From: Bacteroidales bacterium
Lineage (GTDB): Bacteria > Bacteroidota > Bacteroidia > Bacteroidales > WRLA01
NCBI GenBank assembly: GCA_965230045.1
Contig: OZ245940.1
Location: 8,058 to 72,057 of the forward strand
Reading direction: 5' to 3'
Length of the DNA stretch: 64,000 bases
Below are positions 34,870 to 49,355 of the stretch, piece by piece (position 1 is the stretch's first letter; every line of letters starts with the position of its first letter). The notes under the pieces were generated by a model that made no database searches, was not told where the DNA came from, and worked only from the letters and a program-made list of their open reading frames with translations. A program made the translations under genes and the position numbers.

Positions 34870-35217
34870 ATGGATTATACAAATCAAAAAAGCAGAAGCC
34901 TGTTCTTTAACGAGAAAGGTAAAGTGCATCAGGCATTAGTTGATACAATTATATATATCGAATGTACTGGCAGTATATCCTCTATACACCTCCTTGATCA
35001 AAACAAATGCATTCACTGTTGTGAACCACTAAAAGATATCGAGGAACGTTTAGATGGGCTTAATTTTTATAGGATCAATAGAAATACTTTGCTCAATCTG
35101 AGATATTTCTCAAAATTTGTATCCGGGGAAAAAAGACTTATTCAAATCCTTAATGGTGAAGAATTAAAAGTTTCCAGAAGGCGCTGGCAAGAAATCCGAA
35201 ATATGCTAAAACAATAA
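34870..35217 (+). CDS. Stand-alone LytTR DNA-binding domain regulator
   Basis: 115 aa. ...IIYIECTGSISSIHLLDQNKCIHCCEPLKDIEERLDGLNFYRINRNTLLNLRYF... matches the LytTR pattern. There is no receiver domain. Confidence 0.8.
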   Translation: MDYTNQKSRSLFFNEKGKVHQALVDTIIYIECTGSISSIHLLDQNKCIHCCEPLKDIEERLDGLNFYRINRNTLLNLRYFSKFVSGEKRLIQILNGEELKVSRRRWQEIRNMLKQ

Positions 35218-35318
35218 ACCGCTCATTTATAAAAACGAACCGTTCATCCCTTAAAACATACCGCTTATCAAATAAAACGACCATTTGAATAAAATCTTAA
35301 TATGAATACATATCTTTG
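35217..35318 (+). promoter_or_regulatory. Four phased direct repeats (candidate LytTR sites) plus a Bacteroidetes-type -7 box, cassette 1
   Basis: AACCGCTCAT (35217), AACCGTTCAT (35238), TACCGCTTAT (35259) and GACCATTTGA (35279) are spaced 21/21/20 bp. TATCTTTG (TAnnTTTG) lies at 35311-35318, and a fifth copy AACCATTCAT at 35345. Confidence 0.5.
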
Positions 35319-35719
35319 TTTTTGTATAATTATGCTAAGATATGAACCATTCATTTAGATATAAAGTCCGACAGCTTGTTTTAAAATGGAGTTATGCTTT
35401 CAGGGACAATAGAATGCGTTCCGGTCATTGTGACATTAAATTTATAACGGATCATTGCTTGTCTCCGGACTACCACAATAGACCTATAAGAACAATCTTG
35501 CTCAAAAATGACAGCGGAAATGGATTTATTAAATTTGTCTATTTAATTTCTAAGCATATTTTTATGCTGGGAAAGAATAAGTTCGACTGACTATACCGTT
35601 TCCGGATACATTAGAACCCGACCGGAACGGCATAATGTAGAATATACGTATTAAATGGGCTCTGCAATAACAAGTTACAGTATTAGAAAATTTATGAATT
35701 GGATTAAAAATCTTATAAT

Positions 35720-35929
35720 ATGAAAAAGAAAAAATTAAGTTTAAATAAAGTTAAAGTTGCAAAGCTGCAAGATACCAAGATGAATAATGTTATTGGAGGG
35801 AATTTGGCTGAACCAACCCATACATGTCGTGAAACACAAGTTACGTGTATGCTAACTTGCTTAGATCCTGACTCAATAGTGGCTTGTGAATTATCAAGTC
35901 CTTGTACAACTCTGTTTACTACCAATTAA
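35720..35929 (+). CDS. lanA: Lanthipeptide-type precursor peptide 1 (GG leader)
   Basis: Leader MKKKKLSLNKVKVAKLQDTKMNNVIGG. The 42-aa core has 5 Cys and 12 Ser/Thr. It sits upstream of a LanC gene. Confidence 0.8.
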   Translation: MKKKKLSLNKVKVAKLQDTKMNNVIGGNLAEPTHTCRETQVTCMLTCLDPDSIVACELSSPCTTLFTTN

Positions 35930-35959
35930 TTATTATTTTGAATATTTTCATGATTTTAT

Positions 35960-35984
35960 GGGTGTCCATAAAGGACACCCTTTT
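35960..35984 (+). terminator. Hairpin plus T4 immediately after precursor gene 1 (candidate leaky terminator/attenuator)
   Basis: GGGTGTCC-ataaa-GGACACCC followed by TTTT. Confidence 0.5.
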
Positions 35985-36000
35985 ACAATATCAGCATTAT

Positions 36001-37344
36001 ATGAAAAGATTATATTTATTATTAGTACTACTTTCTACGTATCAATTACTTTTCTCACAAAACAATACCGTTGTGAAAGGAACCGTAATTGAAGAAAATA
36101 CCGGGCAACCATTGCCCAATGTAGCCATCCAGATTTGGCCGGGCAGCAAATTCGGAAGCATAAGCAACAAAGAAGGAAGGTTTAAAATCAACACAGACAA
36201 AGATAGCATAACATTGAAGTTCTCTCACATCTCGTCCGTGCCGAAACTATTAAAAGTCAATGCTAAAGCCGTGTCAGACTCCAACCTCCTTGTTACATTG
36301 AGTCCGTTTTCATACACCCTTGATGCCGTGGAAATCAGCGAAGAGAGATATGAAACGATCTATAAAAAACCCAATCAATCGGTTATTGATTACGAAATTT
36401 ACGATCACCGCATCTACTTCCTGCTGAAAGATTACTCCAATAGGAAATACCAGCTGATTTCGGTTGATGAAAACCTTAGGGACACAATCTTTAGCACTCC
36501 TCCCGGCAAGCCCAGGGGAATTATTATTGATTTTTATGGCAACCTGGATATTGTTTCAAAATCGAATTCTGTTTATCAGATTATTATTGAAAACGGCCAG
36601 ATTAACTATCTGGAACCCTTCAATTATTCAAAACTCGAAAAAGTAAATGAACTATATGATTTCAAAATTGACAGCAATTATTATTTTTCTGAATATAAGA
36701 CAAAAATCAATGATAAAATCTGCTACTACACAATAAACAGGAGCACCAAAAATATTTTTCACACCATTATAGACGATAAGAAAGTTGATTATATTTTTCA
36801 AGAACTACGGTTTTTATTGCCAAAGAAATTTTTTAACTCTGGTGTTCCTCCTGGAGATGAGAGAAGAGCCTTTATTAATAATATGTATGACAATCACGAA
36901 ATTACCTTTGATCTAAATTATCATTACAACAACATATGGAATGTATTCTTCAATATTGAAAATGAAATATATATCATTGATAACATCAAAAACAAGCTAT
37001 TAAAGTTTGATAAAAGAGGCAAGCTCGTCTCAGAGCTCAACATAACACACAGCAATGATGATGAAAAAGCTTTCAGTTTGCTGGAAATGGAAGAAGGGCG
37101 GATATGGAAGGACAAGGCATTGATAGACAACTGCAATAACGGAAAAGCATATTTCTTATGGAAACAGGGCGCCAGAACCGAGCTTTATTCATTAGATCTC
37201 AAGAGCGGCGAGATCTCATTTATTGAAACACTGCCCCATGTTTTCCCCATTAAAATAAAGGTGTATAACAACACCATTTATTATTTATACCAGAAAATTG
37301 GCAACAGCAGGAATTATGGGCTTTATAGAATGTATATAAATTAA
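36001..37344 (+). CDS. Secreted protein X1: CarboxypepD_reg-like N-domain plus an uncharacterised beta-rich (propeller-like) domain
   Basis: Signal peptide MKRLYLLLVLLSTYQLLFSQ. VKGTVIEENTGQPLPNVAIQIWPGSKFGSISNKEGRFKI resembles a carboxypeptidase-regulatory-like fold. Later repeats such as EIYIIDNIKNKLLKFDKRGKLV resemble NHL/6-bladed propeller strands. Confidence 0.6.
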   Translation: MKRLYLLLVLLSTYQLLFSQNNTVVKGTVIEENTGQPLPNVAIQIWPGSKFGSISNKEGRFKINTDKDSITLKFSHISSVPKLLKVNAKAVSDSNLLVTLSPFSYTLDAVEISEERYETIYKKPNQSVIDYEIYDHRIYFLLKDYSNRKYQLISVDENLRDTIFSTPPGKPRGIIIDFYGNLDIVSKSNSVYQIIIENGQINYLEPFNYSKLEKVNELYDFKIDSNYYFSEYKTKINDKICYYTINRSTKNIFHTIIDDKKVDYIFQELRFLLPKKFFNSGVPPGDERRAFINNMYDNHEITFDLNYHYNNIWNVFFNIENEIYIIDNIKNKLLKFDKRGKLVSELNITHSNDDEKAFSLLEMEEGRIWKDKALIDNCNNGKAYFLWKQGARTELYSLDLKSGEISFIETLPHVFPIKIKVYNNTIYYLYQKIGNSRNYGLYRMYIN

Positions 37345-37354
37345 GAATAGATTG

Positions 37355-38527
37355 ATGAATGTGGATTTGCTATTAAAAAAAGTGTACGAATCATTGTCGC
37401 CTGTAAATGAGGTAAGTGTTCATGGATTTTATTCTGATACTTCGGGAATCTCCCTTTTCCTTTTTTATTATTCCTTAATGCTAAATGATGAAAAGTGTTA
37501 CAATAAAGCGGTAATGCTTCTTGAAAAAACTTTGATGTCTTATTACCAAACCAGAATTGCGCCTTCTGACATTGCCAGATTGGGTTGGCTTTTACTAAAT
37601 CTTGATAGTAATGATTTTTTAGAGACTGATATTAATGAATTGATTGAGAAGAGTGTGAATAAAGTTTTATTCGAAAAAGTTTTGGATTATCTAAAAAATG
37701 ACAATTACGACTTCTTGCATGCTGCACTTGGTATCATTCAGTACTTTTTGAGCAAAAATGATATAGAAAGTCGGTTCTATGTTTCAGAATTTGTTGATGA
37801 ATTTGCAGAAAAGGCAGAAAGGGTAAAAGATAATGAGCTGAAATGGCTGTCAACATTAGACATCAGAACAAAAACAAAAGGCTATAATATCAGCATGTCG
37901 CACGGTCTGGCAAGCATTATCACTATGCTGAGCAAGATATACAAACAGGGAATTAACCAGGATAAAACGAAGTACTTACTTGAAGGAGCCGTGAATTATC
38001 TGCTGCAACAAAAATTGCCCAATGGCAAGTATATTTCTGTTTTCCCAAACTTTGCCATAGAAAGCATGAAAAATTTGGCCCCGAGCCGTCTTGCCTGGTG
38101 TTATGGCGATCTTGGCATTTCTGTAGCAATATGGCATGCATCACAGGCGCTTGGGCGAAAAGATTGGGAAGAAAAAGCCATTAACATTCTGCTCCACTCT
38201 GCCCAGCGAAGGGATTTGAAAGAAAACAGCGTAATAGATGCAGGGCTTTGCCATGGTACAGCTGGCATTGCACATATTTATAACCGTATGTATGGCTATA
38301 CGGGTGTTGAAGAACTGAAAGAAGCTTCTGAATACTGGTTCGGCCAAACCCTTAAAATGGCACGCTTTGAGGATGGTTTGGCGGGTTACAAGGCCTGGCA
38401 TGGGCTTGATAAAGGATGGAAAAATGAGACAGGACTGCTGGAAGGAATTGCAGGCATTGGTCTTGCCATGATTTCTGCTGTTTCGGATATAGAGCCTGCA
38501 TGGGACGAATGTTTGTTGTTAAGTTAG
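37355..38527 (+). CDS. lanC: LanC-like lanthipeptide cyclase 1
   Basis: The motifs SMSHGLASI (catalytic His), LAWCYGDLG (WCxG, Zn Cys) and LCHGTAGI (CHG, Zn Cys/His) are at LanC-typical spacing. About 390 aa. Confidence 0.85.
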   Translation: MNVDLLLKKVYESLSPVNEVSVHGFYSDTSGISLFLFYYSLMLNDEKCYNKAVMLLEKTLMSYYQTRIAPSDIARLGWLLLNLDSNDFLETDINELIEKSVNKVLFEKVLDYLKNDNYDFLHAALGIIQYFLSKNDIESRFYVSEFVDEFAEKAERVKDNELKWLSTLDIRTKTKGYNISMSHGLASIITMLSKIYKQGINQDKTKYLLEGAVNYLLQQKLPNGKYISVFPNFAIESMKNLAPSRLAWCYGDLGISVAIWHASQALGRKDWEEKAINILLHSAQRRDLKENSVIDAGLCHGTAGIAHIYNRMYGYTGVEELKEASEYWFGQTLKMARFEDGLAGYKAWHGLDKGWKNETGLLEGIAGIGLAMISAVSDIEPAWDECLLLS

Positions 38528-38578
38528 ATTGAGATGCTGGAGGCACTGAAAAGAACGCCGAAATATGCTAAAACAATA

Positions 38579-38680
38579 AACCGCTCATTTATAAAAATGA
38601 ACCGTTCATCCCTTAAAACATACCGTTTATCAAATAAAACGACCATTTGAATAAAATCTTAATATGAATACATACCTTTG
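38579..38680 (+). promoter_or_regulatory. Phased direct repeats plus -7 box, cassette 2
   Basis: The same four repeats occur at identical spacing, with TACCTTTG at 38673-38680. The block is preceded by a copy of the last about 44 nt of lytTR. Confidence 0.5.
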
Positions 38681-39081
38681 TTTTCGTATTGTTAAGCAAA
38701 GTTATGAACCATTCATTTAGATATAAAGTCCGACAGCTTGTTTTAAAATGGAGTTATGCTTTCAGGGACAATAGAATGCGTTCCGGTCATTGTGACATTA
38801 AATTTATAACGGTTCATTGCTTGTCTCCGGACTACCACAATAGACCTATAAAAACAATCTTGCTCAAAAAAGACAGCGGAAATGGATTTAATAAATTCGT
38901 CTATCTAATTTCTAAGCATATTTTTATGCTGGGAAAGAATAAGTTCGACAGGCTATGCCGTTTCCGGATACATTAGAACCCGACAGGAACGGCATAATGT
39001 AGAATATACGTATTAAATGGGCTCTGCAATAACAAGTTACAGTATTAGAAAATTTAAGAATTGGATTAAATATCTTATAAT

Positions 39082-39282
39082 ATGAAAAAGAAAAAAATAA
39101 AATTGGTTCTTACTAAAAGGACTATATCAAATTTGCAAGATTTTGAAATGAAACGGGTTCTTGGAGGAGAAGAGCCTACGAAAAATGTCACCTGCGCTAC
39201 ATGCATAGAAACTAAATATCCCGCATGTGGATGGTCTGGCTGTTGGGGGCCACGCACTTGTGCAATTACAACTACAGATTAG
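39082..39282 (+). CDS. lanA: Lanthipeptide-type precursor peptide 2 (GG leader, divergent)
   Basis: Leader MKKKKIKLVLTKRTISNLQDFEMKRVLGG. The 37-aa core EEPTKNVTCATCIETKYPACGWSGCWGPRTCAITTTD has 5 Cys and 9 Ser/Thr. Confidence 0.8.
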   Translation: MKKKKIKLVLTKRTISNLQDFEMKRVLGGEEPTKNVTCATCIETKYPACGWSGCWGPRTCAITTTD

Positions 39283-39296
39283 TTATCCTATTTTTG

Positions 39297-39340
39297 ACCT
39301 CCAATTGTGAGTATAATAGTATCACCATTGGAGGTTATTT
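39297..39340 (+). terminator. Hairpin after precursor gene 2
   Basis: ACCTCCAAT...ATTGGAGGT (39297-39335) followed by TATTT. Confidence 0.4.
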
Positions 39341-39393
39341 CTAATGGTGTGATATTGTTTGTGTTTTGATCAATTATATATATTCTAATAGTT

Positions 39394-40758
39394 TTGAAAA
39401 AAAAGATATTTAAATTTTTGTTTACTGCTTTATTAATATCAACAGTACAAGTTGGAGTATTTGGGCAATCTTCTATAATAGTTACAGGTGTTGTTAGAAA
39501 TAATCCTGATGTAAATATCTCAGTTTTAGAAACAAGTTATGGAACTATCACTAATGAAACTGGGCACTACTCTTTGGAGGTTTTTGCAGAAGCTGAGAAA
39601 ACGCAATTACTCTTCTCAAAAATTGGATATAGGGACACAATTGTACAGCTACGAAAAGAAGATATTAATATAGACACAATTTTATTAAATATTACACTAA
39701 ATAAACATTCATACCTCCTTCCGGAATTTAAGGTTAAGTCCAGCCCATATTTTTTCAGTACTTCAAACTCTATTATTCTCGATATTGAATTCATTGATAA
39801 TTTGCTGTTTGTATTAAATCGTAAGCAAAATAGATCCGAGCTTATTTTATTAGACGAAAATGGTAGTGTGCTATCTGTACAGCAGGTTAATAATAAGTAC
39901 AATGAAATTTTTAGAGATTGTTTCGGTAACTATGAATTAATCGGGAATGATTCGTGTTTGCAGTTGCATTATAATTCTTTGGATACGTCATTCAATGCAG
40001 TCGATAAATTTACAACTGCAGCTTTTAATAAAAAAATTAAACCCTTCGTTTTAAACCTTGGTTGTATGTTTCTAACTAAAGATTATTTTGAAAAAAACAG
40101 CGCAATTGTGAGCAAACATCACAACCAGAAAGTTAATTACTATTATATTGACACTTGTAAGCCCGTAAAAAATAAAAAATTACTGGTTAGCTTCTTTGAT
40201 TCTGTGGCTTATAATATTGCTGCCAGTTATTATTCGGATATAATTTCATTGTATTATGCGACAACACCGTCTAGCCAGAATCTTATAGAGTCTGGTGTCT
40301 GGAATGGAAATATTCTAAAGCTTATTAACAATAACCATAGATTGTTTAATTTAATTTCTTGGTACTTGTCAGTAGAAGCCAAGCCTGTTGAAATTGATGT
40401 GTTTGTTGATAACAACGAAATAATTTTTTATAATCATCAGAATTTCACTATCCTCAGATATAATAAATCTTTCGTTCTTATGGATAAAGGGACTGTATTT
40501 ATGCAGAATGGAGTTAAAATAGATAATATTTTGCAAGATGATATAACCGGAACTATATATGCTTCACAACTTAAGAATGGAATTAATTATATTGGTAAAT
40601 TTGATATAAAAAGCGGAAAAGTACGTAAGCAAGTTAAGTCACATACAACTCCATTTCCTAAAATATTCAGAATCCATAATAATGCTGTGTACTGCGTCTA
40701 CTATGATAGTATTAAAAGAAGAAGTACTGTTATCAGAAAGTCACTATATGAAAGATAA
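39394..40758 (+). CDS. Secreted protein X2 (divergent paralog of X1/X3)
   Basis: Same length class and architecture. It has a signal peptide and VTGVVRNNPDVNISVLETSYGTITNETGHYSL (CarboxypepD_reg-like). The C-terminus ...IHNNAVYCVYYDS...VIRKSLYE parallels ...VYNNTIYYLYQKI...LYRMYIN. The start codon is TTG or a nearby alternative. Confidence 0.55.
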   Translation: MKKKIFKFLFTALLISTVQVGVFGQSSIIVTGVVRNNPDVNISVLETSYGTITNETGHYSLEVFAEAEKTQLLFSKIGYRDTIVQLRKEDINIDTILLNITLNKHSYLLPEFKVKSSPYFFSTSNSIILDIEFIDNLLFVLNRKQNRSELILLDENGSVLSVQQVNNKYNEIFRDCFGNYELIGNDSCLQLHYNSLDTSFNAVDKFTTAAFNKKIKPFVLNLGCMFLTKDYFEKNSAIVSKHHNQKVNYYYIDTCKPVKNKKLLVSFFDSVAYNIAASYYSDIISLYYATTPSSQNLIESGVWNGNILKLINNNHRLFNLISWYLSVEAKPVEIDVFVDNNEIIFYNHQNFTILRYNKSFVLMDKGTVFMQNGVKIDNILQDDITGTIYASQLKNGINYIGKFDIKSGKVRKQVKSHTTPFPKIFRIHNNAVYCVYYDSIKRRSTVIRKSLYER

Positions 40759-40765
40759 TAAAATT

Positions 40766-41496
40766 ATGAAAATTCTTTTGGATAAGAAGTTAGATGAAAT
40801 TTCTAGGGTCTTATTGAACTCAAATTTAACAATAACACAATCAGAAAATTTGCTTGGTGACAAATCAGGTATTGCTCTTTTCTTGTTCCAATATAGCCAA
40901 TTTAAAAATGAAGCAAAATATTACGACTTTGCTTATGAAATACTTGAAAGCATTGCCAATGTATATCGCGAAAATCAAATTTTACCAACTTCAATATCAA
41001 AATTTGAATGGTTACTATTGTATCTGGAGAAACAAGGAATTATTGATTTAGATATTGAAAATATTCATGAAGATATCGACTATCATTTATACGAAGTCGC
41101 AAATGCTTGTCTTCAAAAGTATGGTTATGATTTTTTGCACGGAGCTTTAGGTATTGTGCTTTATTTTTTGAAAAAAAATGATGATCTAACCAGTAATTTC
41201 ATATTTAATCTCATTAATACTCTAGAGCTAGTTTCTGATAAGACTCAAAGTAATATTGTTAAATGGCTTTCCGTTATTGATTATAAAACAAGTGAAACGG
41301 CATACAATATCAGCATGTCGCACGGTCTGGCAAGCATTATCGCTATGCTGAGCAAGATATACAAACAGGGAATTAATCAGGATAAAACGAAGTACTTACT
41401 TGAAGGAGCCGTGAATTATCTGCTGCAACAAAAATTGCCCAATGGCAAGTATATTTCTGTTTTCCCAAACTTTGCCATAGAAAGCATGAAAAATTT
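40766..41496 (+). pseudogene. lanC: lanC2, 5' fragment (interrupted by IS66)
   Basis: The N-terminal about 180 codons are divergent. From about 41300 (YNISMSHGLASII...) the sequence is nearly nucleotide-identical to lanC1. The frame is cut after ...ESMKNL by the IS end GTAAGCC. Confidence 0.85.
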
Positions 41497-41565
41497 GTAA
41501 GCCTTCAGCAAAAGGCATATTGCACAAGCTTTTAAAGCTTCCGTTCTTTGCTGCAAAAAAGCAAT

Positions 41566-41853
41566 ATGCAAAAAGAACAAAGAAGAGCAGAGATGAAAAC
41601 ACTGGTGGATCAATGGCATACCAGTGGCCAAAGCAAAAGATCCTTTGCCGAATCACACAAAATCTGCTATCACACTTTCCTTTATTGGTATCATAAATTT
41701 GAACAGGAAGAAAGCTTGCCTGATGGCCATGGGTTCATTGAGCTTTCCGGGACTCCAGCTGCAGGGATTATCATCCGTTATCCCAATGGTATCGAGCTCA
41801 ACCTTCCGGGCAATGTGCCCTTGTCCTATCTCAAATCGCTCACCGGCCAATAA
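41566..41853 (+). CDS. tnpA: IS66 accessory protein TnpA
   Basis: Small HTH-like protein in the first position of the IS66 operon. Its stop overlaps the tnpB start (TAATG). Confidence 0.7.
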   Translation: MQKEQRRAEMKTLVDQWHTSGQSKRSFAESHKICYHTFLYWYHKFEQEESLPDGHGFIELSGTPAAGIIIRYPNGIELNLPGNVPLSYLKSLTGQ

Positions 41854-42218
41854 TGTTCAGCTTAACAGCCAGCCGCTATTACCTGTACCGCCAGCCCACC
41901 GATATGCGCAAGAGCTTTGATGGGCTGTATGGCATTGTGCGCAACAAACTGGACAAAAACCCAATGAGCGGTGATGTTTTCCTGTTCATCAACAAAAAGC
42001 GCGACCGCATAAAACTGCTGCGCTGGGAAAGCGGAGGTTTTGTGCTGTTCTACAAAAGGCTCGAAAAAGGCACTTTTCACCTGCCGGACACATCTGCTGC
42101 GCACGCCTCCCACCAGCTGATCGACTACCCTGAACTTGTAATGATAATCAATGGTATTTCCATGAAAAATGCAAGGAAATACCCACGTTTTTTCCCACAT
42201 GAAAATGTTGGTAAATAG
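41853..42218 (+). CDS. tnpB: IS66 Orf2 (TnpB)
   Basis: ...YLYRQPTDMRKSFDGLYGIV...GDVFLFINKKRDRIKLLRWESGGFVLFYKRLEKGTF is the hallmark IS66 TnpB pattern. Confidence 0.85.
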   Translation: MFSLTASRYYLYRQPTDMRKSFDGLYGIVRNKLDKNPMSGDVFLFINKKRDRIKLLRWESGGFVLFYKRLEKGTFHLPDTSAAHASHQLIDYPELVMIINGISMKNARKYPRFFPHENVGK

Positions 42219-42265
42219 CGCTTAAAATATAGTCAGCCAAGAGGTTACTTCCGTATCTTTGCCTC

Positions 42266-43720
42266 ATGGCAAGTCAGGAAAATATAACTATATCAAAAGC
42301 GGAATATGATGCAATGCAACAGAAAATATTCCTGCTTCAGCATGAACTTGTCCAGTTGAGGCGTGCGATCTATGGAGCCAAAAGCGAACGGCATATCGCG
42401 GCAGACCCCAACCAGGGCGTGCTTTTTGACGTGCCTGCACAGGAGAAAGAGCCGGAAAAGGAGCAGATCAGCTATACGCGCAATAAAAAGCAGTCCAAAA
42501 AACAGCCCGTGCGCTTAGAACTGCCCGCCCACCTGCCGCGCCATGAAATCATCATCGAACCCCAAAACCTGCCCAAAGGCGCCCATAGGGTCAACGTAAA
42601 AATCACCGAAGTACTTGATTATGTGCCCGGGACTTTTCGTGTGATCCGTTATATACGTCCTTATTATGCCGTAGCAGGCCAGGGCGAAAGCACCCAAATG
42701 ATTTGTGCAGAACTACCTTCGCGCGCCTTGTTCAAAAGCAATGCCTCAGAAGGCCTGCTCTCTTATGTGACTGTCAGCAAATTTGTTGACCACCTGCCAT
42801 TCTACCGCCTTGTCAAGATGTTCAAGCGCATGGGGATCGAAATAGCCGAATCAACAATAAACGGCTGGTTTAGCGGGGTTTGCAGATTGCTTGAGCCGCT
42901 TTACGATGCCCTGAAAAAAGAAATCATGAGGACCGATTACCTGATGGCAGACGAAACGCCTATAAAGGTATTGACCAAAGACAAGCCCGGGGCATCGCAC
43001 AAAGGGTATCACTGGGTTTATTACGACCCGCTTAAAAAACTGGCCCTGTTCGATTACCGGAAAGGCCGCGGGCGGGAAGGCCCGGATGAGATGCTGGAAA
43101 ACTATAGTGGATATTTGCAAACCGATGGCTACACCGCTTACGACAACCTAAAAAACAAAGCCGAAATCACCCAATTGGCCTGCATGGCGCATGCACGCAG
43201 GTATTTTGAGAAAGCCAAGGACAATGATGCTGCACGCAGTGAATATGCGCTGGGGCAGATAAGAAAACTGTATGCCATTGAACGTCAGGCAAGTGAGCAA
43301 GAGCTACAGCCGGAGGAGGTCAAAGCATTGCGGCAAAAGGAATCAATGCCCATATTGAACGAAATGGAAAGCTGGCTTAAGGAAGAAGTTTATAAAGTAG
43401 CGCCCAAAAGCGCAATCGGCAAAGCCATAGCTTACAGCCTGAAATTATGGGGGCGCCTGATCCGTTATATTGAAGACGGAAGGCTGCGCATTGACAACAA
43501 CCTGGTTGAAAACAGCATCAGGCCGGTAGCCATAGGGCGCAAGAATTACCTGTTTGCGGGTTCGCACAATGCAGCCCAGCACGCGGCTATGATCTACTCC
43601 TTTTTTGCCAGCTGCAAAATCCAAAATGTCGAACCCTTCGAGTGGCTCAAGCAAACATTAGAAAAAATCCAGGAACACCCAGCCAACAAGCTCCATCAAC
43701 TCCTGCCCGGACAGATTTAA
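42266..43720 (+). CDS. tnpC: IS66-family DDE transposase (TnpC)
   Basis: N-terminal coiled-coil/zipper, ...YLMADETPIKVL...HKGYHWVY...GYLQTDGYTAYD...CMAHARRYF...RIDNNLVENSIRPVAIGRKNYLFAGS. Confidence 0.9.
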   Translation: MASQENITISKAEYDAMQQKIFLLQHELVQLRRAIYGAKSERHIAADPNQGVLFDVPAQEKEPEKEQISYTRNKKQSKKQPVRLELPAHLPRHEIIIEPQNLPKGAHRVNVKITEVLDYVPGTFRVIRYIRPYYAVAGQGESTQMICAELPSRALFKSNASEGLLSYVTVSKFVDHLPFYRLVKMFKRMGIEIAESTINGWFSGVCRLLEPLYDALKKEIMRTDYLMADETPIKVLTKDKPGASHKGYHWVYYDPLKKLALFDYRKGRGREGPDEMLENYSGYLQTDGYTAYDNLKNKAEITQLACMAHARRYFEKAKDNDAARSEYALGQIRKLYAIERQASEQELQPEEVKALRQKESMPILNEMESWLKEEVYKVAPKSAIGKAIAYSLKLWGRLIRYIEDGRLRIDNNLVENSIRPVAIGRKNYLFAGSHNAAQHAAMIYSFFASCKIQNVEPFEWLKQTLEKIQEHPANKLHQLLPGQI

Positions 43721-43771
43721 AACATTATCCGGTTATATGCAAGATGCTGTTCGCCGTAGGCTTACAAAAAT

Positions 43772-44224
43772 TTGGCCCCGAGCCGTCTTGCCTGGTGCTA
43801 TGGAGATCTCGGCATTTCAGTGGCAATTTGGCATGCATCACAGGCGCTTGGGCGAAAAGATTGGGAAGAAGAAGCCATTAACATTCTGCTCCACTCTGCC
43901 CAGCGAAGGGATTTGAAAGAAAACAGCGTAATAGATGCAGGGCTTTGCCATGGTACAGCTGGCATTGCACATATTTATAACCGTATGTATGGCTATACGG
44001 GTGTTGAAGAACTAAAAGAAGCTTCTGAATACTGGTTCGGCCAAACCCTTAAAATGGCACGCTTTGAGGATGGTTTGGCGGGCTACAAGGCCTGGCATGG
44101 GCTTGATAAAGGATGGATAAACGAACCTGGACTGCTGGAAGGAATTGCCGGCATTGGTCTTGCCATGATTTCTGCTGTTTCGGATATAGAGCCTGCATGG
44201 GACGAATGTTTGTTGTTAAGTTAG
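43772..44224 (+). pseudogene. lanC: lanC2, 3' fragment
   Basis: It continues lanC2 in frame after the TSD (APSRLAWCYGDLG...CHGTAGI...ECLLLS). It is nearly identical to the 3' parts of lanC1 and lanC3. Confidence 0.85.
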
Positions 44225-44275
44225 ACTGAGATACTGAAGGCGCTGGCAGGAACTCCGAAATATGCTAAACCAATA

Positions 44276-44377
44276 AACCACTCATTTATAAAAATGAACC
44301 GTTCATCCCATAAAACATACCGTTTATCAAATAAAACGACCATTTGAATAAAAACTTAATATGAATACATACCTTTG
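44276..44377 (+). promoter_or_regulatory. Phased direct repeats plus -7 box, cassette 3
   Basis: AACCACTCAT, AACCGTTCAT, TACCGTTTAT and GACCATTTGA occur at the same spacing, with TACCTTTG at 44370-44377. The block is preceded by a lytTR 3'-end copy (GAAGGCGCTGGCAGGAACTCCGAAATATGCTAAACCAATAA). Confidence 0.5.
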
Positions 44378-44778
44378 TTTTTGTATTATTAAGCTAAGAT
44401 ATGAACCATTCATTTAGATATAAAGTCCGACTGCCTGTACTGAAATGGAATGATGCTTTCAGGAACAATAGAATGTGTTCCGGTCATTATGACATTAAAT
44501 TTATAACGGACCATTGCTTGTCTCCGGACTACCACAATAGACTTATAAGAACAATCTTGCTCAAAAAAGACAGCGGAAATGGATTCAGCGAATTTGTCTA
44601 TCTAATTTCTAACCGTATTTTTATGCTGGGAAAGAATAAGTTCGACAGGCTATGCCGTTTCCGGATACACCAGAACCCGACCGAAACGGCATAATGTAGA
44701 ATAAACGTATTAAATGGGTTCTGCAATAACAAGTTACAGTATTAGAAAATTTAAGAATTGGATTAAAAATCTTATAAT

Positions 44779-45003
44779 ATGAAAAAGAAAAAATTAAGTT
44801 TAAATAAAGTTAAAGTTGCAAAGCTGCAAGATACCAAGATGAATAATGTTATTGGAGGGAATTTGGCTGAACCAACCGATACATGTCGTGAAACAGAGCT
44901 TACCTGTATACTAACTTGTCTAGATCCTAACTCATTGGATGTATGCGAAACATCAAGTCCTTGTTTTACTCATTGGACCGATTGTAATACTTGTTGGTGT
45001 TAA
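44779..45003 (+). CDS. lanA: Lanthipeptide-type precursor peptide 3 (leader identical to peptide 1)
   Basis: The 27-aa leader is identical to peptide 1. The 47-aa core has 8 Cys and 12 Ser/Thr and diverges from peptide 1 mainly in its C-terminal third (...SSPCFTHWTDCNTCWC). Confidence 0.8.
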   Translation: MKKKKLSLNKVKVAKLQDTKMNNVIGGNLAEPTDTCRETELTCILTCLDPNSLDVCETSSPCFTHWTDCNTCWC

Positions 45004-45019
45004 TGAAATATAGTAATTA

Positions 45020-45044
45020 GGGTGTCCATAAAGGGCGCCCTTTT
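45020..45044 (+). terminator. Hairpin plus T4 after precursor gene 3
   Basis: GGGTGTCC-ataaa-GGGCGCCC followed by TTTT. The two A-to-G changes relative to cassette 1 keep pairing only as G-U in plus-strand RNA. Confidence 0.45.
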
Positions 45045-45060
45045 ACAATATCAATATTAG

Positions 45061-46401
45061 ATGAAAAAATTATATTTATTATTAGTAATACTATCTGCGC
45101 ATCAATTACTTTTCTCACAAAACAATTCCGTTGTGAAAGGAACCGTAATTGAAGAAAATACCGGGCAACCACTTGCCAATGTAGCCATCCAGATTTGGCC
45201 GGGCAGCAAATTCGGAAGCATAAGCGACAAAGAAGGAAGGTTTAAAATCAACACAGACAGAGATAGCATAACATTGAAGTTCTCTCACATCTCATCCAAA
45301 CCGAAACTGCTAAAAATCAATATCAAAACCGTTTCAGATTCCAATCTGGTGGTTACATTAATGCCATTTTCATACACCCTTGATGCAGTGGAAATTAGCG
45401 AAGAAAAATATGAAACGATCTATAAAAAACCCAACCAATCGGTTATTGATTATGAAATTTATAATCACCGCATCTACTTCCTGCTGAAAGATTACGCCAA
45501 TATGAAATACCAGCTGATTTCGGTAGATGAAAACCTTAGAGACACAATCTACAGTAGCCCTCCCGGCAAGCCCCGGGGAATTATTATTGATTTTTATGGC
45601 AACCTGGATATTGTTTCAAAATCGAATTCTGTTTATCAGATTATTATTGAAAACGATCAAATAAACTATCTGGAACCCTTCAATTATTCAAAGCTCAAGA
45701 AAGTAAACGAACTGTACGATTTTAAGATTGATAGCAATTATTATTTTTCTGAGTTCCAAACAAAAATAAAAGACATAATTAATTATGGAAAAATTAATAG
45801 AGGAAGTAAGAATATTTTCTATTCACTATTTGATGAGGATAAGATAAACTATTTTTATGATGAGATGAGATTTTTGGGATTGTTTAATAAGTGTTATTCA
45901 GCTCCACCTGGAGAAAAAAGAAGGGATATAGTTACAAAGCTTTATGACAGGCAAGAGATAAACTTCACTGTAAACTTTATGTATAACCACATTTCAAACG
46001 CCTATTTTCATATAAAGGACAGTATATACATTATAGATAATATCAATAACAAGCTATTGAAGTTTGATAAAAACGGCAAGCTCGTCTCAGAGCTCAACAT
46101 AACACACATCCATGACGATGAAAAAGCTTACAAGCTTTTGGAAAGAGAAGAAGGGCGGATATGGAAAGACAAGGCATTGATAGACAATTGCAATAATGAA
46201 AAAGCATATTTTTTATGGAAAGAGGGTGCAAAAACCGATCTATACAGCCTTGACCTTAGCGGTGGAGAGATCTCATTTATTGAAACACTGCCCCATGTTT
46301 TCCCCATTAAAATAAAGGTGTATAACAACACCATTTATTATTTATACCAGAAAATTGGCAACAGCAGGAATTATGGGCTTTATAGAATGTATATAAATTA
46401 A
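45061..46401 (+). CDS. Secreted protein X3 (paralog of X1)
   Basis: It is collinear with X1. The N- and C-terminal thirds are near-identical, and the central segment (about 45790-46050) is strongly divergent. Confidence 0.6.
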   Translation: MKKLYLLLVILSAHQLLFSQNNSVVKGTVIEENTGQPLANVAIQIWPGSKFGSISDKEGRFKINTDRDSITLKFSHISSKPKLLKINIKTVSDSNLVVTLMPFSYTLDAVEISEEKYETIYKKPNQSVIDYEIYNHRIYFLLKDYANMKYQLISVDENLRDTIYSSPPGKPRGIIIDFYGNLDIVSKSNSVYQIIIENDQINYLEPFNYSKLKKVNELYDFKIDSNYYFSEFQTKIKDIINYGKINRGSKNIFYSLFDEDKINYFYDEMRFLGLFNKCYSAPPGEKRRDIVTKLYDRQEINFTVNFMYNHISNAYFHIKDSIYIIDNINNKLLKFDKNGKLVSELNITHIHDDEKAYKLLEREEGRIWKDKALIDNCNNEKAYFLWKEGAKTDLYSLDLSGGEISFIETLPHVFPIKIKVYNNTIYYLYQKIGNSRNYGLYRMYIN

Positions 46402-46411
46402 AAATGAATTG

Positions 46412-47584
46412 ATGAATGTGGATTTGCTATTAAAAAAAGTGTACGAATCATTGTCGTCTGTAAATGAGGTAAGTGTTCATGGATTTTATTCTGATACTTC
46501 GGGAATCTCCCTTTTCCTTTTTTATTATTCCTTAATGCTAAATGATGAAAAGTGTTACAATAAAGCGGTAATGCTTCTTGAAAAAACTTTGATGTCTTAT
46601 TACCAAACCAGAATTGCGCCTTCTGACATTGCCAGATTGGGTTGGCTTTTACTAAATCTTGATAGTAATGATTTTTTAGAGACTGATATTAATGAATTGA
46701 TTGATAAGAGTGTGAATAAAGTTTTATTCGAAAAAGTTTTGGATTATCTAAAAAATGACAATTACGACTTCTTGCATGGTGCACTTGGTATCATTCAGTA
46801 CTTTTTGAGCAAAAATGATATAGAAAGTCGGTTCTATGTTTCAGAATTTGTTGATGAATTTGCAGAAAAGGCAGAAAGGGCAAAAGATAATGAGCTGAAA
46901 TGGCTGTCAACATTAGACATCAGAACAAAAACAAAAGGCTATAATATTAGCATGTCGCACGGTCTGGCAAGCATTATCGCTATGCTGAGCAAGATATACA
47001 AACAGGGAATTAATCAGAATAAAACAAAGTACTTACTTGAAGGAGCCATGAATTATCTGCTGCAACAAAAATTGCCCAATGGCAAGTATATTTCTGTTTT
47101 CCCAAACTTTGCCATAGAAAGCATGAAAAATTTGGCCCCGAGCCGTCTTGCCTGGTGTTATGGCGATCTTGGCATTTCTGTAGCAATATGGCATGCCTCA
47201 CAAGCCCTGGGGCGAAAGGATTGGGAAGAAGAAGCCATTAGAATTCTACTCCATTCTGCCCGTCGAAGGGATTTGAAAGAAAACAGCGTAATAGATGCAG
47301 GGCTTTGCCATGGTACAGCTGGCATTGCACATATTTATAACCGTATGTATGGCTATACGGGTGTTGAAGAACTAAAAGAAGCTTCTGAATACTGGTTCGG
47401 CCAAACCCTTAAAATGGCACGCTTTGAGGATGGTTTGGCGGGTTACAAGGCCTGGCATGGGCTTGATAAAGGATGGAAAAATGAACCGGGACTACTGGAA
47501 GGAATCGCAGGCATTGGTCTTGCCATGATTTCTGCTGTTTCGGATATAGAACCTGCATGGGACGAATGTTTGTTGTTAAGTTAG
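46412..47584 (+). CDS. lanC: LanC-like lanthipeptide cyclase 3
   Basis: Near-identical to lanC1, with the same HG / WCYG / CHG motifs. Confidence 0.85.
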   Translation: MNVDLLLKKVYESLSSVNEVSVHGFYSDTSGISLFLFYYSLMLNDEKCYNKAVMLLEKTLMSYYQTRIAPSDIARLGWLLLNLDSNDFLETDINELIDKSVNKVLFEKVLDYLKNDNYDFLHGALGIIQYFLSKNDIESRFYVSEFVDEFAEKAERAKDNELKWLSTLDIRTKTKGYNISMSHGLASIIAMLSKIYKQGINQNKTKYLLEGAMNYLLQQKLPNGKYISVFPNFAIESMKNLAPSRLAWCYGDLGISVAIWHASQALGRKDWEEEAIRILLHSARRRDLKENSVIDAGLCHGTAGIAHIYNRMYGYTGVEELKEASEYWFGQTLKMARFEDGLAGYKAWHGLDKGWKNEPGLLEGIAGIGLAMISAVSDIEPAWDECLLLS

Positions 47585-47590
47585 ATTTGT

Positions 47591-48490
47591 ATGGATGATA
47601 TCATGCTTTATAAGCCTTTTAATAAGTACATTTTGCGTACCCCCACCTTTCCTTTAAGTTTTGTTTGTGAGTTAACTTCAGGGGATGAAATTAGAGAAGC
47701 AGAGTTAAAACATATTTTTGCTGATCCTCTTGTTCAAGAGGCTGTATTTATCGCCTCACAACCTCTGTATCATGAAATGGAAAAATGGCTACAGGACGAT
47801 ACGGCAAAGGACAGAAAAGGGAAAAGAAAGAATGAAAAACTTAAAGAAAGCCTGCTGCGTTATTTGTTTCGTATGTCCACGCGATGCACTCCTTTTGGCA
47901 TGTTTGCAGGCTTTTCCGCAGGATCTTTTAGTGATATTAGTAAAATCGAGCTTAAATCTAAAATAGATTGTGTTTGTCATACCCGTTTGGATATGAATTA
48001 TTTGTGTGCTTTGGCATTTGATTTATCAAAAAACAGAGATATTAGAAAGCATCTAAAATTTTCACCAAACTCAAGTATATATAAAATCGGCAATCAAATC
48101 AGATATGTCGAGTATTACTATGTAAACAGTCATCGTAAACATCATATTGTTGCTGTCGATAATTCGGAATATATTACTGCTGTATTGCAAAAGGCCATTA
48201 AAGGAGAAAGGATTGACAATCTTTCCGAAATACTGGTGGATGAAGAGATTTCAATGAATGATGCCGTATCATTTGTTAACGAAATGATTGACGAACAACT
48301 CCTGATAAGTGAATTGGAACCACGTGTTACAGGAGCTGATTTTCTTGTTCAAATAATAGAAATCCTTTCCAGGATGCCCCAAGATTCCGGGATTTCTACC
48401 GTACTAAAAAACCTTGTACAAATTTACAAGGAATTAAATCAACTCAAACAGCTACCCCCGTTCCCGCGCGTGTCCTCACGCGTGGCTTAG
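47591..48490 (+). pseudogene. lanB: Lanthipeptide dehydratase LanB, N-terminal about 290 codons only (truncated)
   Basis: ...YKPFNKYILRTPTFPL...LLRYLFRMSTRCTPFGMFAGFSAG...HTRLDMNYL... resembles the start of the Lant_dehydr_N domain. Homology stops where the hairpin element begins (about 48450). Full-length glutamylation domains are several-fold longer. Confidence 0.7.
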
Positions 48491-48842
48491 CAAGTCAGGC
48501 TAAGCAAACCCGTATATTCCGTAAGTCACAAAAGCAGCTTTCTTTTAACAGCTCTTGTTGCCTTGATATTTTAATGCGCATAAAAAAAGTTTTTGATGCG
48601 CATGAAAAATTATTTCTACGCCTGTTATCATCAATTTAAATACTTGAAGTAATAGCAATAAAGTGATTTCACAAAAAATCAGGTACATTCACCAAAATCC
48701 AGTCGAAGAGGGCCTGGTGTTTTATCCTGAGGATTATTTGTACTTAGTGCATTGGATTATGCAGGAAAAAAAGGGATACTCGAAGATGTTATTGTGGTTG
48801 ATATTTAAGCAGTACCGCGCGTGAGGACACGCGCGGTAGCTG
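48449..48842 (+). mobile_element. Remnant of a REP-flanked Y1 (RAYT/IS200-like) transposase: two inverted hairpins around a degraded gene fragment
   Basis: The hairpins CCGCGCGTG-tcct-CACGCGTGG (48464-48485) and CCGCGCGTG-agga-CACGCGCGG (48815-48836) are in inverted orientation. Outer CAGCTACC / GGTAGCTG motifs flank them. Between them, 48651-48808 translates (with one frameshift) to ...VISQKIRYIHQNPVEEGLVFYPEDY / ..LSALDYAGKKGILEDVIVVDI*, which is the typical C-terminus of Y1_Tnp-type transposases. Confidence 0.5.
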
Positions 48843-48857
48843 GGGGAAACACTTTTA

Positions 48858-49355
48858 ATGCAACTCCAAGAATCTATTGAAACTCTTAGAACAGCTATTG
48901 ATGGCTGGGAAAATAAGTATATTTTACGGTCACCTATTGATGGTAGATGCGTTTTCATTCAATACTGGAGGAAGAATCAAATTGTTGCTTCCAATGAAAA
49001 AGTTATGGCAATTGTACCCGTTCATGGTAAAGACATAATTGGCAGTCTTCAAATACCAACGCATGGCTTTGGAAAAGTAAAGCAGGGGCAAGAGGTTATC
49101 ATAAGGCTTAATAATTATCCTTATATGGAATTTGGAGTGCTCAAAGGGTTCATTAAAAATATTTCAACTATTCCAAATAAGGATTTCTATTATGCTGAAG
49201 TTGATTCTCTTGATGGAATGACGACGACATATGGTATTGAAATAGAGTGTTCACAAAGTTTGTCTGGCACTGCAGAAATAATAACAGAGGATACCAGGCT
49301 GCTTTATCGTTTAATACGTCCTGTTAAGTCTTTAGTTGATAGATGGATAGGTTAG
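48858..49355 (+). pseudogene. HlyD-family membrane-fusion protein, C-terminal fragment only
   Basis: ...LRSPIDGRCVFIQYW...VMAIVP...IPTHGFGKVKQGQEVIIRLNNYPYMEFGVLKGFIKNIS...LSGTAEIITEDTRLLYRLIRP is the beta-barrel/C-terminal part of HlyD_3-type proteins. The frame opens only at the TAG inside the right hairpin. Confidence 0.7.

Follow-up and report, generated by a model that had tools for sequence, protein, structure and literature searches.

The window analysed here, a stretch of 64,000 nucleotides from an uncultured Bacteroidales bacterium (assembly GCA_965230045.1, contig OZ245940.1, positions 8,058 to 72,057 of the forward strand), carries a class I lanthipeptide cassette in triplicate. 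Each copy contains about 0.5 kb of conserved upstream DNA, the gene of a precursor peptide with a GG leader (66-74 aa), the gene of a secreted protein of about 450 aa that we call X, and a gene for a LanC cyclase. Cassettes 1 and 3, which are old paralogues, differ sharply in two short segments, the tail of the peptide and the central part of X; both segments occur in two forms, and a given form of the tail accompanies a given form of X. It is very probable that gene conversion homogenises the cassettes and that the two linked segments persist across species as a stable polymorphism that predates them. As an overall explanation we favour an old matched pair of a peptide and its binder, in which we place somewhat more belief than doubt. 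The functional part of this explanation, i.e. that X binds the peptide in the periplasm, reads its tail with the insert and most likely serves as an immunity protein specific to that peptide, is one that we infer tentatively and rate a little below even chances.

Divergence between cassettes 1 and 3

Cassette 1 (35177-38530, plus strand; defined by self-BLAST and open reading frames) comprises the upstream leader DNA, the precursor A1, X1 and LanC1; cassette 3 (44236-47587, plus strand; self-BLAST, MAFFT and open reading frames) comprises the equivalent DNA, A3, X3 and LanC3. The two are 89.7% identical over 3.37 kb (3370 nt) by self-BLAST and MAFFT alignment. Along a 60-nt sliding window the identity is 90-100% nearly throughout, and it falls to 46-65% at 35874-35961 and at 36682-36981. 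In the peptide tail and the spacer that follows it (35874-35975) 42 of 106 positions differ (40%), as opposed to 316 of 3252 elsewhere (Fisher p=2e-15), and in the X segment (36697-36981) 125 of 285 differ (44%), as opposed to 233 of 3073 elsewhere (Fisher p=1e-53). With both patches removed the background is 191 differences in 2967 positions (6.4%). An earlier, sequence-only reading of this DNA had described localised patches of this kind, and these counts and the course of the sliding window confirm it, well beyond what chance would give, and speak against uniform divergence.

Several details of that reading can now be made more exact. The precursor leaders, described as identical over 27 aa, are identical over 33 aa; the cyclases are near-identical as stated, LanC1 and LanC3 differing at 11 of 391 residues; and the counts of 5 and 8 Cys in the two peptides are right. 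The peptide cores were said to diverge after about residue 35; scattered changes do occur from residue 34 on, but the sharp break comes only at residue 63, after ..SSPC. The divergent segment of X, placed at about residues 243-330, is real, but it runs from about residue 232 to 326 and so begins about 10 residues earlier. The flanks do not show the reported very few changes throughout but are a mosaic of 100%-identical tracts and tracts of 85-95% identity, with two minor divergent patches at 36232-36321 and 37124-37258.

All of the following features are on the plus strand. A1 (35720-35929, 69 aa) has a GG leader with the LxLxKx5L motif, the short tail ..SSPCTTLFTTN and 5 Cys, and A3 (44779-45003, 74 aa) has the long tail ..SSPCFTHWTDCNTCWC and 8 Cys. 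The first dimorphic patch lies at 35837-35975 in cassette 1, where it takes in core codons 40-41 (QV versus EL), the tail after SSPC and the spacer up to a hairpin, and at 44896-45019 in cassette 3, where it covers the long-tail form and the spacer. X1 (36001-37344, 447 aa counted from MKRLYLL) contains the second patch at 36690-36990 and X3 (45061-46401, 446 aa) contains it at 45750-46047; we refer to the segment of X encoded there as the module. LanC1 (37352-38527) was recognised as an open reading frame, and the Pfam match to PF05147 was obtained on LanC3 (46409-47584; E=9e-36, 123.6 bits, full length).

Two smaller differences within X were seen outside the module. A third dimorphic patch in the C-terminal part (37124-37258 and 46181-46315) reads ..KQGARTELYSLDLKSGE in one form and ..KEGAKTDLYSLDLSGGE in the other, and it assorts independently of the module: X1 of the source genome, of type A, has the state of a type B gene in the related genome G004 (G4_Xb). 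In addition, X3 of the source genome diverges from X1 at residues 78-107 (45292-45381; 71-77% identity), a stretch in which the two copies are 100% identical both in G004 and in a further metagenome-assembled genome (MAG). The latter patch is private to X3 and lies outside the shared dimorphism.

Two forms of the peptide tail and of the X module

The comparison included the source genome (G000), four other genomes of the same genus (G001-G004) and the further MAG, represented by a contig (L023) with two cassettes. The related genomes are MAGs of uncultured Bacteroidales, and all organisms in the comparison are uncultured. Close copies of X are limited to five related genomes, which are not independent of each other and from which 12 close X genes were aligned. 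G004 has an intact cluster (L019, G004:C2:1338001-1358000) in which four cassettes are accompanied by LanB (744 aa), an elimination-domain protein, a C39-ABC exporter and HlyD. G001 and G002 contain only a peptide-less array of X genes and no LanC, and G003 contains neither cassettes nor such an array.

Among the 12 genes the central segment of X (residues ~232-326) occurs in exactly two forms, type A (YKTKINDKICYYTINRS...) and type B (FQTKIKDKINYGKIN...). X1 has type A and X3 has type B. Within a genome, A- and B-cassettes retain only about 50% identity in these two windows, and this holds for G000, G004 and the MAG alike (six cassettes). Modules of the same type are 97-100% identical across genomes, with the exception of a sub-patch of 78-80% identity between the type B modules of G000 and G004. 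The module of cassette 1 is about 50% identical to its neighbour in cassette 3 and 97-100% identical to type A of the other genomes. Protein database searches found no close X relatives beyond the 12 genes, and two scans of JGI metagenome contigs found none either, only homologues of at most 51% identity. The patches had been called hypervariable; with two forms among 12 close genes of five genomes and no further close relatives in the searches, this term does not fit. More generally, a patch that seems hypervariable in one genome can prove to be an old and stable two-form polymorphism once relatives are compared.

The precursors likewise have two forms. The short tail, ..SSPC(T/K)TLFTTN, contains no Cys, and the long tail, ..SSPCxxxWTxCN(T/S)CWC, contains three extra Cys. 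Of the six cassettes in the three genomes compared here (G000, G004 and the MAG), every one has either the short tail ahead of module A or the long tail ahead of module B. The variable regions of the two partners thus vary together, in a sample that is small and non-independent. A cognate toxin/immunity or ligand/binder pair had been proposed for this locus, and of that proposal the co-occurrence of tail and module is consistent with the ligand/binder part.

The leader motif LxLxKx5L...GG is known for class I precursors of Bacteroidetes (PMC7268733). The NCBIfam profile NF038153 (lant_leader_L1a) matches A3 (E=1.5e-8) and A2, the precursor of cassette 2 (E=1.5e-7), both above the 22-bit cut-off; A1 has no Pfam match, and the leader matches come from these sister peptides. 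Cys is present in the tail of every outgroup precursor (the partners of P0006, P0029 and P0031), so the long tail seems ancestral-like, which supports the short tail as the derived form. An origin of the short tail from the long one via a 2-nt deletion followed by a stop would be compatible with the alignment; it stays a suggestion because no more than about 8 of 15 bases match downstream, where the sequence is AT-rich. In the third genome, the precursor with the short tail (L023 13943-14173) has a 21-nt in-frame insertion (QDTCSGT) with one added Cys, which looks like a partial duplication in the core.

Concerted evolution and selection

The distribution of diagnostic sites separates the patches from the rest of the cassette. 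All 130 type-diagnostic sites, i.e. those fixed between A- and B-cassettes in every genome, are within 35837-35975 (22 sites) or 36690-36990 (108 sites), and LanC has none. All 46 genome-diagnostic sites, at which both G000 copies have one base and both G004 copies another, are outside the patches; sites of this kind are the signature of concerted evolution. The trees point in the same direction. For the flanks, monophyly of type A is rejected by the approximately unbiased (AU) test (p=1.7e-7), and the copies group by locus with the types intermixed. For the module, A and B separate in the tree at 100% support and ~0.94 substitutions per site; here a grouping of the two G000 copies is rejected (AU test, p=5e-5). 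Derived states are therefore shared within genomes and the topologies of the segments are in conflict, as is characteristic of concerted evolution. That gene conversion homogenises the cassette, as had been supposed, is well supported by the genome-diagnostic sites and by the test on the flanks.

Between the A and B modules the synonymous sites are saturated (pS ~1.0, pN 0.29), so a dN/dS ratio cannot be computed meaningfully and a value above 1 cannot be shown; the same saturation indicates that the split is old. The flanks have dS values of 0.07-0.43 and dN/dS of 0.12-0.27. Within a form, the module has dS of 0-0.28 and dN/dS of 0-0.6 across genomes and loci, and purifying selection conserves each form. 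When outgroups are included in the protein tree, A and B come out as sisters (SH-aLRT 96), with a longer stem for A than for B (0.92 versus 0.19). A relative-rate test gave a weak asymmetry (14-18 versus 7-12 unique residues, p=0.04-0.35), and we claim no acceleration of A. A donor search among 176 family sequences found none closer to module A than B is, and no external donor for either form.

Peptide-less X arrays and exchange of the module

The source genome has six full-length X genes, of which three belong to the cassettes and three (X6-X4-X5) form a tandem array 810 kb away (G000:C1:862768-866900, i.e. L010 7771-11884, minus strand). This array has neither peptide nor LanC genes and adjoins hisS and a histidine ammonia-lyase gene. 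It is syntenic in G001 and G002. Each array contains one A and one B module, the module sequences are identical across genomes, and the orphan copies show no amino-acid differences among three genomes. Their positions are exchanged: G000 has B at the X4 position and A at the X5 position, and G001 and G002 have the reverse. The reciprocal swap spans gene nucleotides ~660 to 1110, i.e. the module and the sub-module that follows it. The left boundary is constant (gene nt ~660-690), and the exchanged piece is 98-100% identical to the copy at the other position in the other genome. The module thus does move in one piece. Cassette swapping had been named as a possible source of the divergence, and an exchange of this kind is what we find, between the tandem paralogues X4 and X5 at the second locus.

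All six loci examined have one A and one B. In addition, the order X6-A-B in G001 and G002 mirrors that of cassettes II-III-IV in G004, and X6 is 67% identical to the X protein of cassette II. The possibility that X is a housekeeping target duplicated in resistant form was rejected, since all six family members of G000 are in the cassettes or the array and there is no separate housekeeping copy. The first 660 nt of X1 (window 36061-36660) are 93-100% identical to the orphan X4, closer than to X3 in the same array, which suggests ectopic conversion between loci 810 kb apart.

Architecture and family of X

The domain matches, the fold model and the Foldseek search were made on X3, which is 81% identical to X1, or on a family alignment (A2) in which X1 is one row; a single-sequence AlphaFold2 (AF2) model of X1 alone was unusable, with a predicted local distance difference test score (pLDDT) of 39.4. 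The only Pfam domain found is a CarboxypepD_reg-like domain (PF13715) at residues 25-110. The AF2 model built from 23 sequences (pLDDT 81.6, predicted TM score 0.66) has a signal peptide at residues 1-19, a beta-sandwich at 23-100, a poorly ordered linker and, at 118-446, a propeller of about six blades, the fourth of which holds a two-helix insert (259-314). Blade 3 contributes its last strands to the dimorphic module, and blade 4 contributes two strands and the helical insert. The 50 best Foldseek matches are mostly beta-propellers (NHL, BamB, WD40, SMP30, paraoxonase) with probability 1.0 and TM scores of at most 0.33; the models therefore support a beta-propeller class for the C-terminal part of X, at TM scores too low for a subfamily assignment. 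X is predicted to be Sec-exported and periplasmic.

A sequence search of the PDB matched only the N-terminal part of X, namely to the N-terminal extension (NTE) of SusC/RagA transporters and to BamP. In the HMMER alignment the linker motif L107-D-A-V-E-I112 of X3 falls on the TonB box of SusC/RagA structures. The TonB-box-like motif directly follows the NTE (X3 residues 106-112, 45376-45396; X1, 36316-36336), and 149 representatives of the family conserve its pattern, L-x-E-V-x-[IV]. To find an NTE and a TonB box on a soluble propeller protein is unusual.

An exhaustive profile search collected 631 family representatives at E<1e-30. Family-wide, the maximum of entropy and indels is at residues 256-300 and overlaps the module, and the conserved motifs PPGxxRR and YNxI are inside both forms. 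The closer relatives of X (35-57% identity) directly follow peptides with lanthipeptide leaders in four further lineages. The searchable literature contains no description of X in lanthipeptide clusters. We point to this family of an NTE, a TonB-box-like strand and a propeller as an uncharacterised but regular companion of lanthipeptide precursors in uncultured Bacteroidales.

Possible role of X and alternative explanations

In the mechanism that we propose, the SusC-like N-terminal domain and the TonB-box-like strand would dock X to a partner in the envelope, the mature peptide would be bound by the beta-propeller, and its tail would be read by the variable helical insert in blade 4. Each X would then serve its own peptide only, most likely by giving immunity to that peptide or by sequestering it, and selection would keep one A and one B per locus even as recombination shifts the module in one piece. 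The tentative role as binder or immunity protein is drawn from the presence of one X per peptide, from the conserved pairing of tail and module and from the lack of any type-specific change in LanC. It also draws on the conserved, peptide-less one-A-one-B arrays in non-producers, with their X6-A-B order mirroring cassettes II-III-IV of G004. A broader proposal can be made, namely that X is an undescribed class of lanthipeptide partner in Gram-negative bacteria that docks on TonB or, in the manner of BamP, on BAM (the machinery for beta-barrel assembly) via its NTE and TonB-box-like strand, captures a single peptide with its insert and gives immunity peptide by peptide, the arrays protecting non-producers from the peptides of their neighbours. 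Taken as a whole this is speculative, and we think it rather unlikely.

There are several points that weigh against a matched peptide/binder pair. The pairing comes from three related genomes that are not independent, and conversion of the sequence between the patches would leave it unbroken, which makes it weak evidence of co-selection. The module is the least constrained part of the fold and is modelled with the lowest confidence (pLDDT 47-75), so a neutral island that has diverged too far to be converted would look similar. Distant relatives of X (21-27% identity) stand alone in unrelated contexts with no peptides, which means that peptide binding is not a property of the whole family. The position of X between lanA and lanC is also compatible with a role in maturation or export. 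Finally, the cluster is non-functional in the source genome, and selection on the peptide side must be past there, or must act on X only.

The neutral explanation takes up the second of these points: the least constrained parts of the cassette would have diverged early beyond the similarity needed for recombination, conversion would stop at their edges and no cognate specificity would exist. The coincidence of the module with the family-wide entropy and indel maximum fits this well, as do the lowest model confidence at residues 295-314, the saturation that leaves positive selection not demonstrable, and the weakness of the relative-rate asymmetry. We nevertheless consider it unlikely, since each form is strongly conserved across genomes and loci with dN/dS below 1 and with orphan copies that are identical in amino-acid sequence in three genomes, both forms keep PPGxxRR and YNxI, and whole-module tracts do occur, yet every one of the six loci has kept one A and one B. 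Somewhat less probable still is that X helps in the maturation of its own peptide or in its export through the outer membrane, e.g. as a TonB-energised periplasmic chaperone whose module recognises the tail for handling. In every cassette X does lie between lanA and lanC, behind the hairpin that follows the peptide gene, and it has the TonB-box-like motif; TonB-dependent secretion across the outer membrane has a precedent in Myxococcus (PMC6434023). Against this reading, the peptide-less arrays are under purifying selection in G001 and G002, both without LanC, and the X genes of G000 are intact despite the deletion of LanB and LanT.

Ongoing diversifying selection, which the sequence-only reading had put forward as making the patches hypervariable, is very improbable. 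The module has diverged at 57% of its amino acids as opposed to about 10% in the flanks, and the stem of A in the protein tree is long; yet the A/B split is old and saturated, only two forms exist among the close genes, searches for further close relatives returned none, and the low dN/dS within each form together with the two-form count led us to reject ongoing positive selection. That one cassette recently acquired a foreign module through recombination with a distant homologue is the least credible of the explanations considered. It would account for the sharp boundaries and for the ~50% identity inside them, but not for the recurrence of both forms, with unchanged boundaries, in three genomes and also at a second locus, nor for the sister relationship of A and B with respect to all outgroups or the lack of a closer donor in the family. 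Should the matched pair be real, the locus would be a clean natural specificity experiment, as the cassettes are near-identical up to and including the cyclase and only the peptide tail and an insert of ~95 residues differ, a design that points to which residues recognise which peptide.

Comparison with known systems

It is instructive to compare this locus with known bacteriocin/immunity specificity pairs with mosaic evolution, such as the DNase-Im pairs of E-type colicins, the S-type pyocins and the CdiA-CT/CdiI pairs of contact-dependent growth inhibition. The likeness consists of short diverged specificity segments in near-identical genes, linked variants of the two partners and modules that recombine. 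The differences are that the 'toxin' side is here the tail of a ribosomal lanthipeptide, that the partner is a 446-aa periplasmic NTE-propeller protein from an uncharacterised family with a putative role, and that there are two forms and not many.

The self-protection of Gram-negative bacteria from their own lanthipeptides, or their handling of them, is poorly known. In Gram-positive producers the LanI lipoproteins, such as NisI and SpaI, confer lantibiotic immunity. They are extracytoplasmic, dedicated to one peptide and encoded within its lanthipeptide cluster, and the role proposed for X is of this kind. Unlike LanI, X has no lipobox Cys at its N-terminus, it has a propeller fold and there is one X per precursor. 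Comparison with Pfam and NCBIfam gave no match to an immunity family, only CarboxypepD_reg and a sub-threshold match to BamP, so that X shows neither the sequence similarity nor the lipoprotein signal of LanI-type proteins.

X resembles BamP, a periplasmic accessory subunit of BAM in Bacteroidota (PDB 9n2d), in its N-terminal CarboxypepD_reg-like domain followed by a linker strand. Paralogues of BamP shield BamA against darobactin, a peptide antibiotic that is ribosomally made and then modified after translation (RiPP; PMC12611786), which sets a precedent for a periplasmic protein with this type of N-terminal domain protecting from a peptide antibiotic. The C-terminal part of X is a propeller and not the BamP C-domain, and X was rejected as a BamP because it scores 34.7 bits against a cut-off of 230 for NF053692 and covers only profile positions 1-133 of 251. 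The similarity to SusC/RagA (PDB 8aa4, 5t3r and 6sli; PMC7782687) lies in the NTE and in a strand of the L-D-E-V-V-V type, which align with high posterior probability. In contrast to these transporters X is soluble, has about 430 aa and has neither a plug nor a 22-strand barrel; an assignment to SusC/RagA was rejected as only the NTE and the TonB-box-like strand match and the rest is a propeller of ~330 aa.

The peptide-less arrays recall the orphan immunity arrays of the Vibrio cholerae type VI secretion system (PMC5361080), in that partner genes without cognate toxin genes are kept in non-producing relatives. They differ from these in that the immunity role of X is hypothetical and that the X array has a syntenic housekeeping neighbourhood. 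With the pinensin family of class I lanthipeptides of Bacteroidota (PMC7268733) the locus shares the leader motif, the GG site, separate LanB and LanC proteins and, in the congener, a C39-ABC exporter; it is distinguished from that family by having one X and one LanC per precursor and by the decay of the cluster in the source genome. A mining study of Bacteroidales from 2023 reported no recognisable immunity genes and an absence of LanB from the genomes screened (PMC10352776). The intact LanB-type class I cluster of G004, an uncultured member of the Bacteroidales, contrasts with the latter result.

Decay of the cluster and other features of the array

The cluster of the source genome belongs to class I by the recognised class I leader on its precursors and by its LanC cyclases, but it has no intact LanB dehydratase with glutamylation and elimination domains. 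Relative to G004 (L019 14306-19562) about 5.3 kb is gone (window 47591-49355); the homology ends at 48458 and restarts at 48846. Residues 290-744 of LanB fall in the deleted stretch, as do the elimination-domain gene, the gene of the C39-ABC exporter (LanT) and codons 1-263 of hlyD. What is left of LanB is a stub of 299 aa (47591-48490, plus strand; Pfam positions 1-242 of 649), and a genome-wide search by Pfam match and by tblastn with LanB, LanB_C and LanT of the congener found nothing beyond this stub. As LanB and the exporter are deleted and no other LanB exists in the genome, the peptides cannot be made and matured here. A1, A3, X1, X3, LanC1 and LanC3 remain intact, and the cluster thus keeps only peptide genes, cyclases and putative binders. 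Together with the peptide-less arrays of non-producers, this decay suggests a dynamic of producers, ex-producers and non-producers within one genus.

Directly 3' of the precursor gene there is a conserved hairpin rich in GC, GGGTGTCC....GGACACCC, with Ts behind it (35960-35984 and 45020-45044). It is the right edge of the first divergent patch and looks like a partial terminator between lanA and the X-lanC pair. Upstream of the array there is a stand-alone LytTR regulator gene (34870-35217). Cassette 2 (38541-44225, plus strand) is divergent and has only its edges in common with cassettes 1 and 3. It contains A2 (39082-39282, plus strand), X2 (39394-40758, plus strand; 25% identity to X1 and X3) and a LanC2 that an IS66 element (41548-43720) splits in two. 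Its 3' part (41295-41497) is 97.5% identical to LanC1, although cassette 2 is otherwise no more than a distant relative; this part is another conversion tract.

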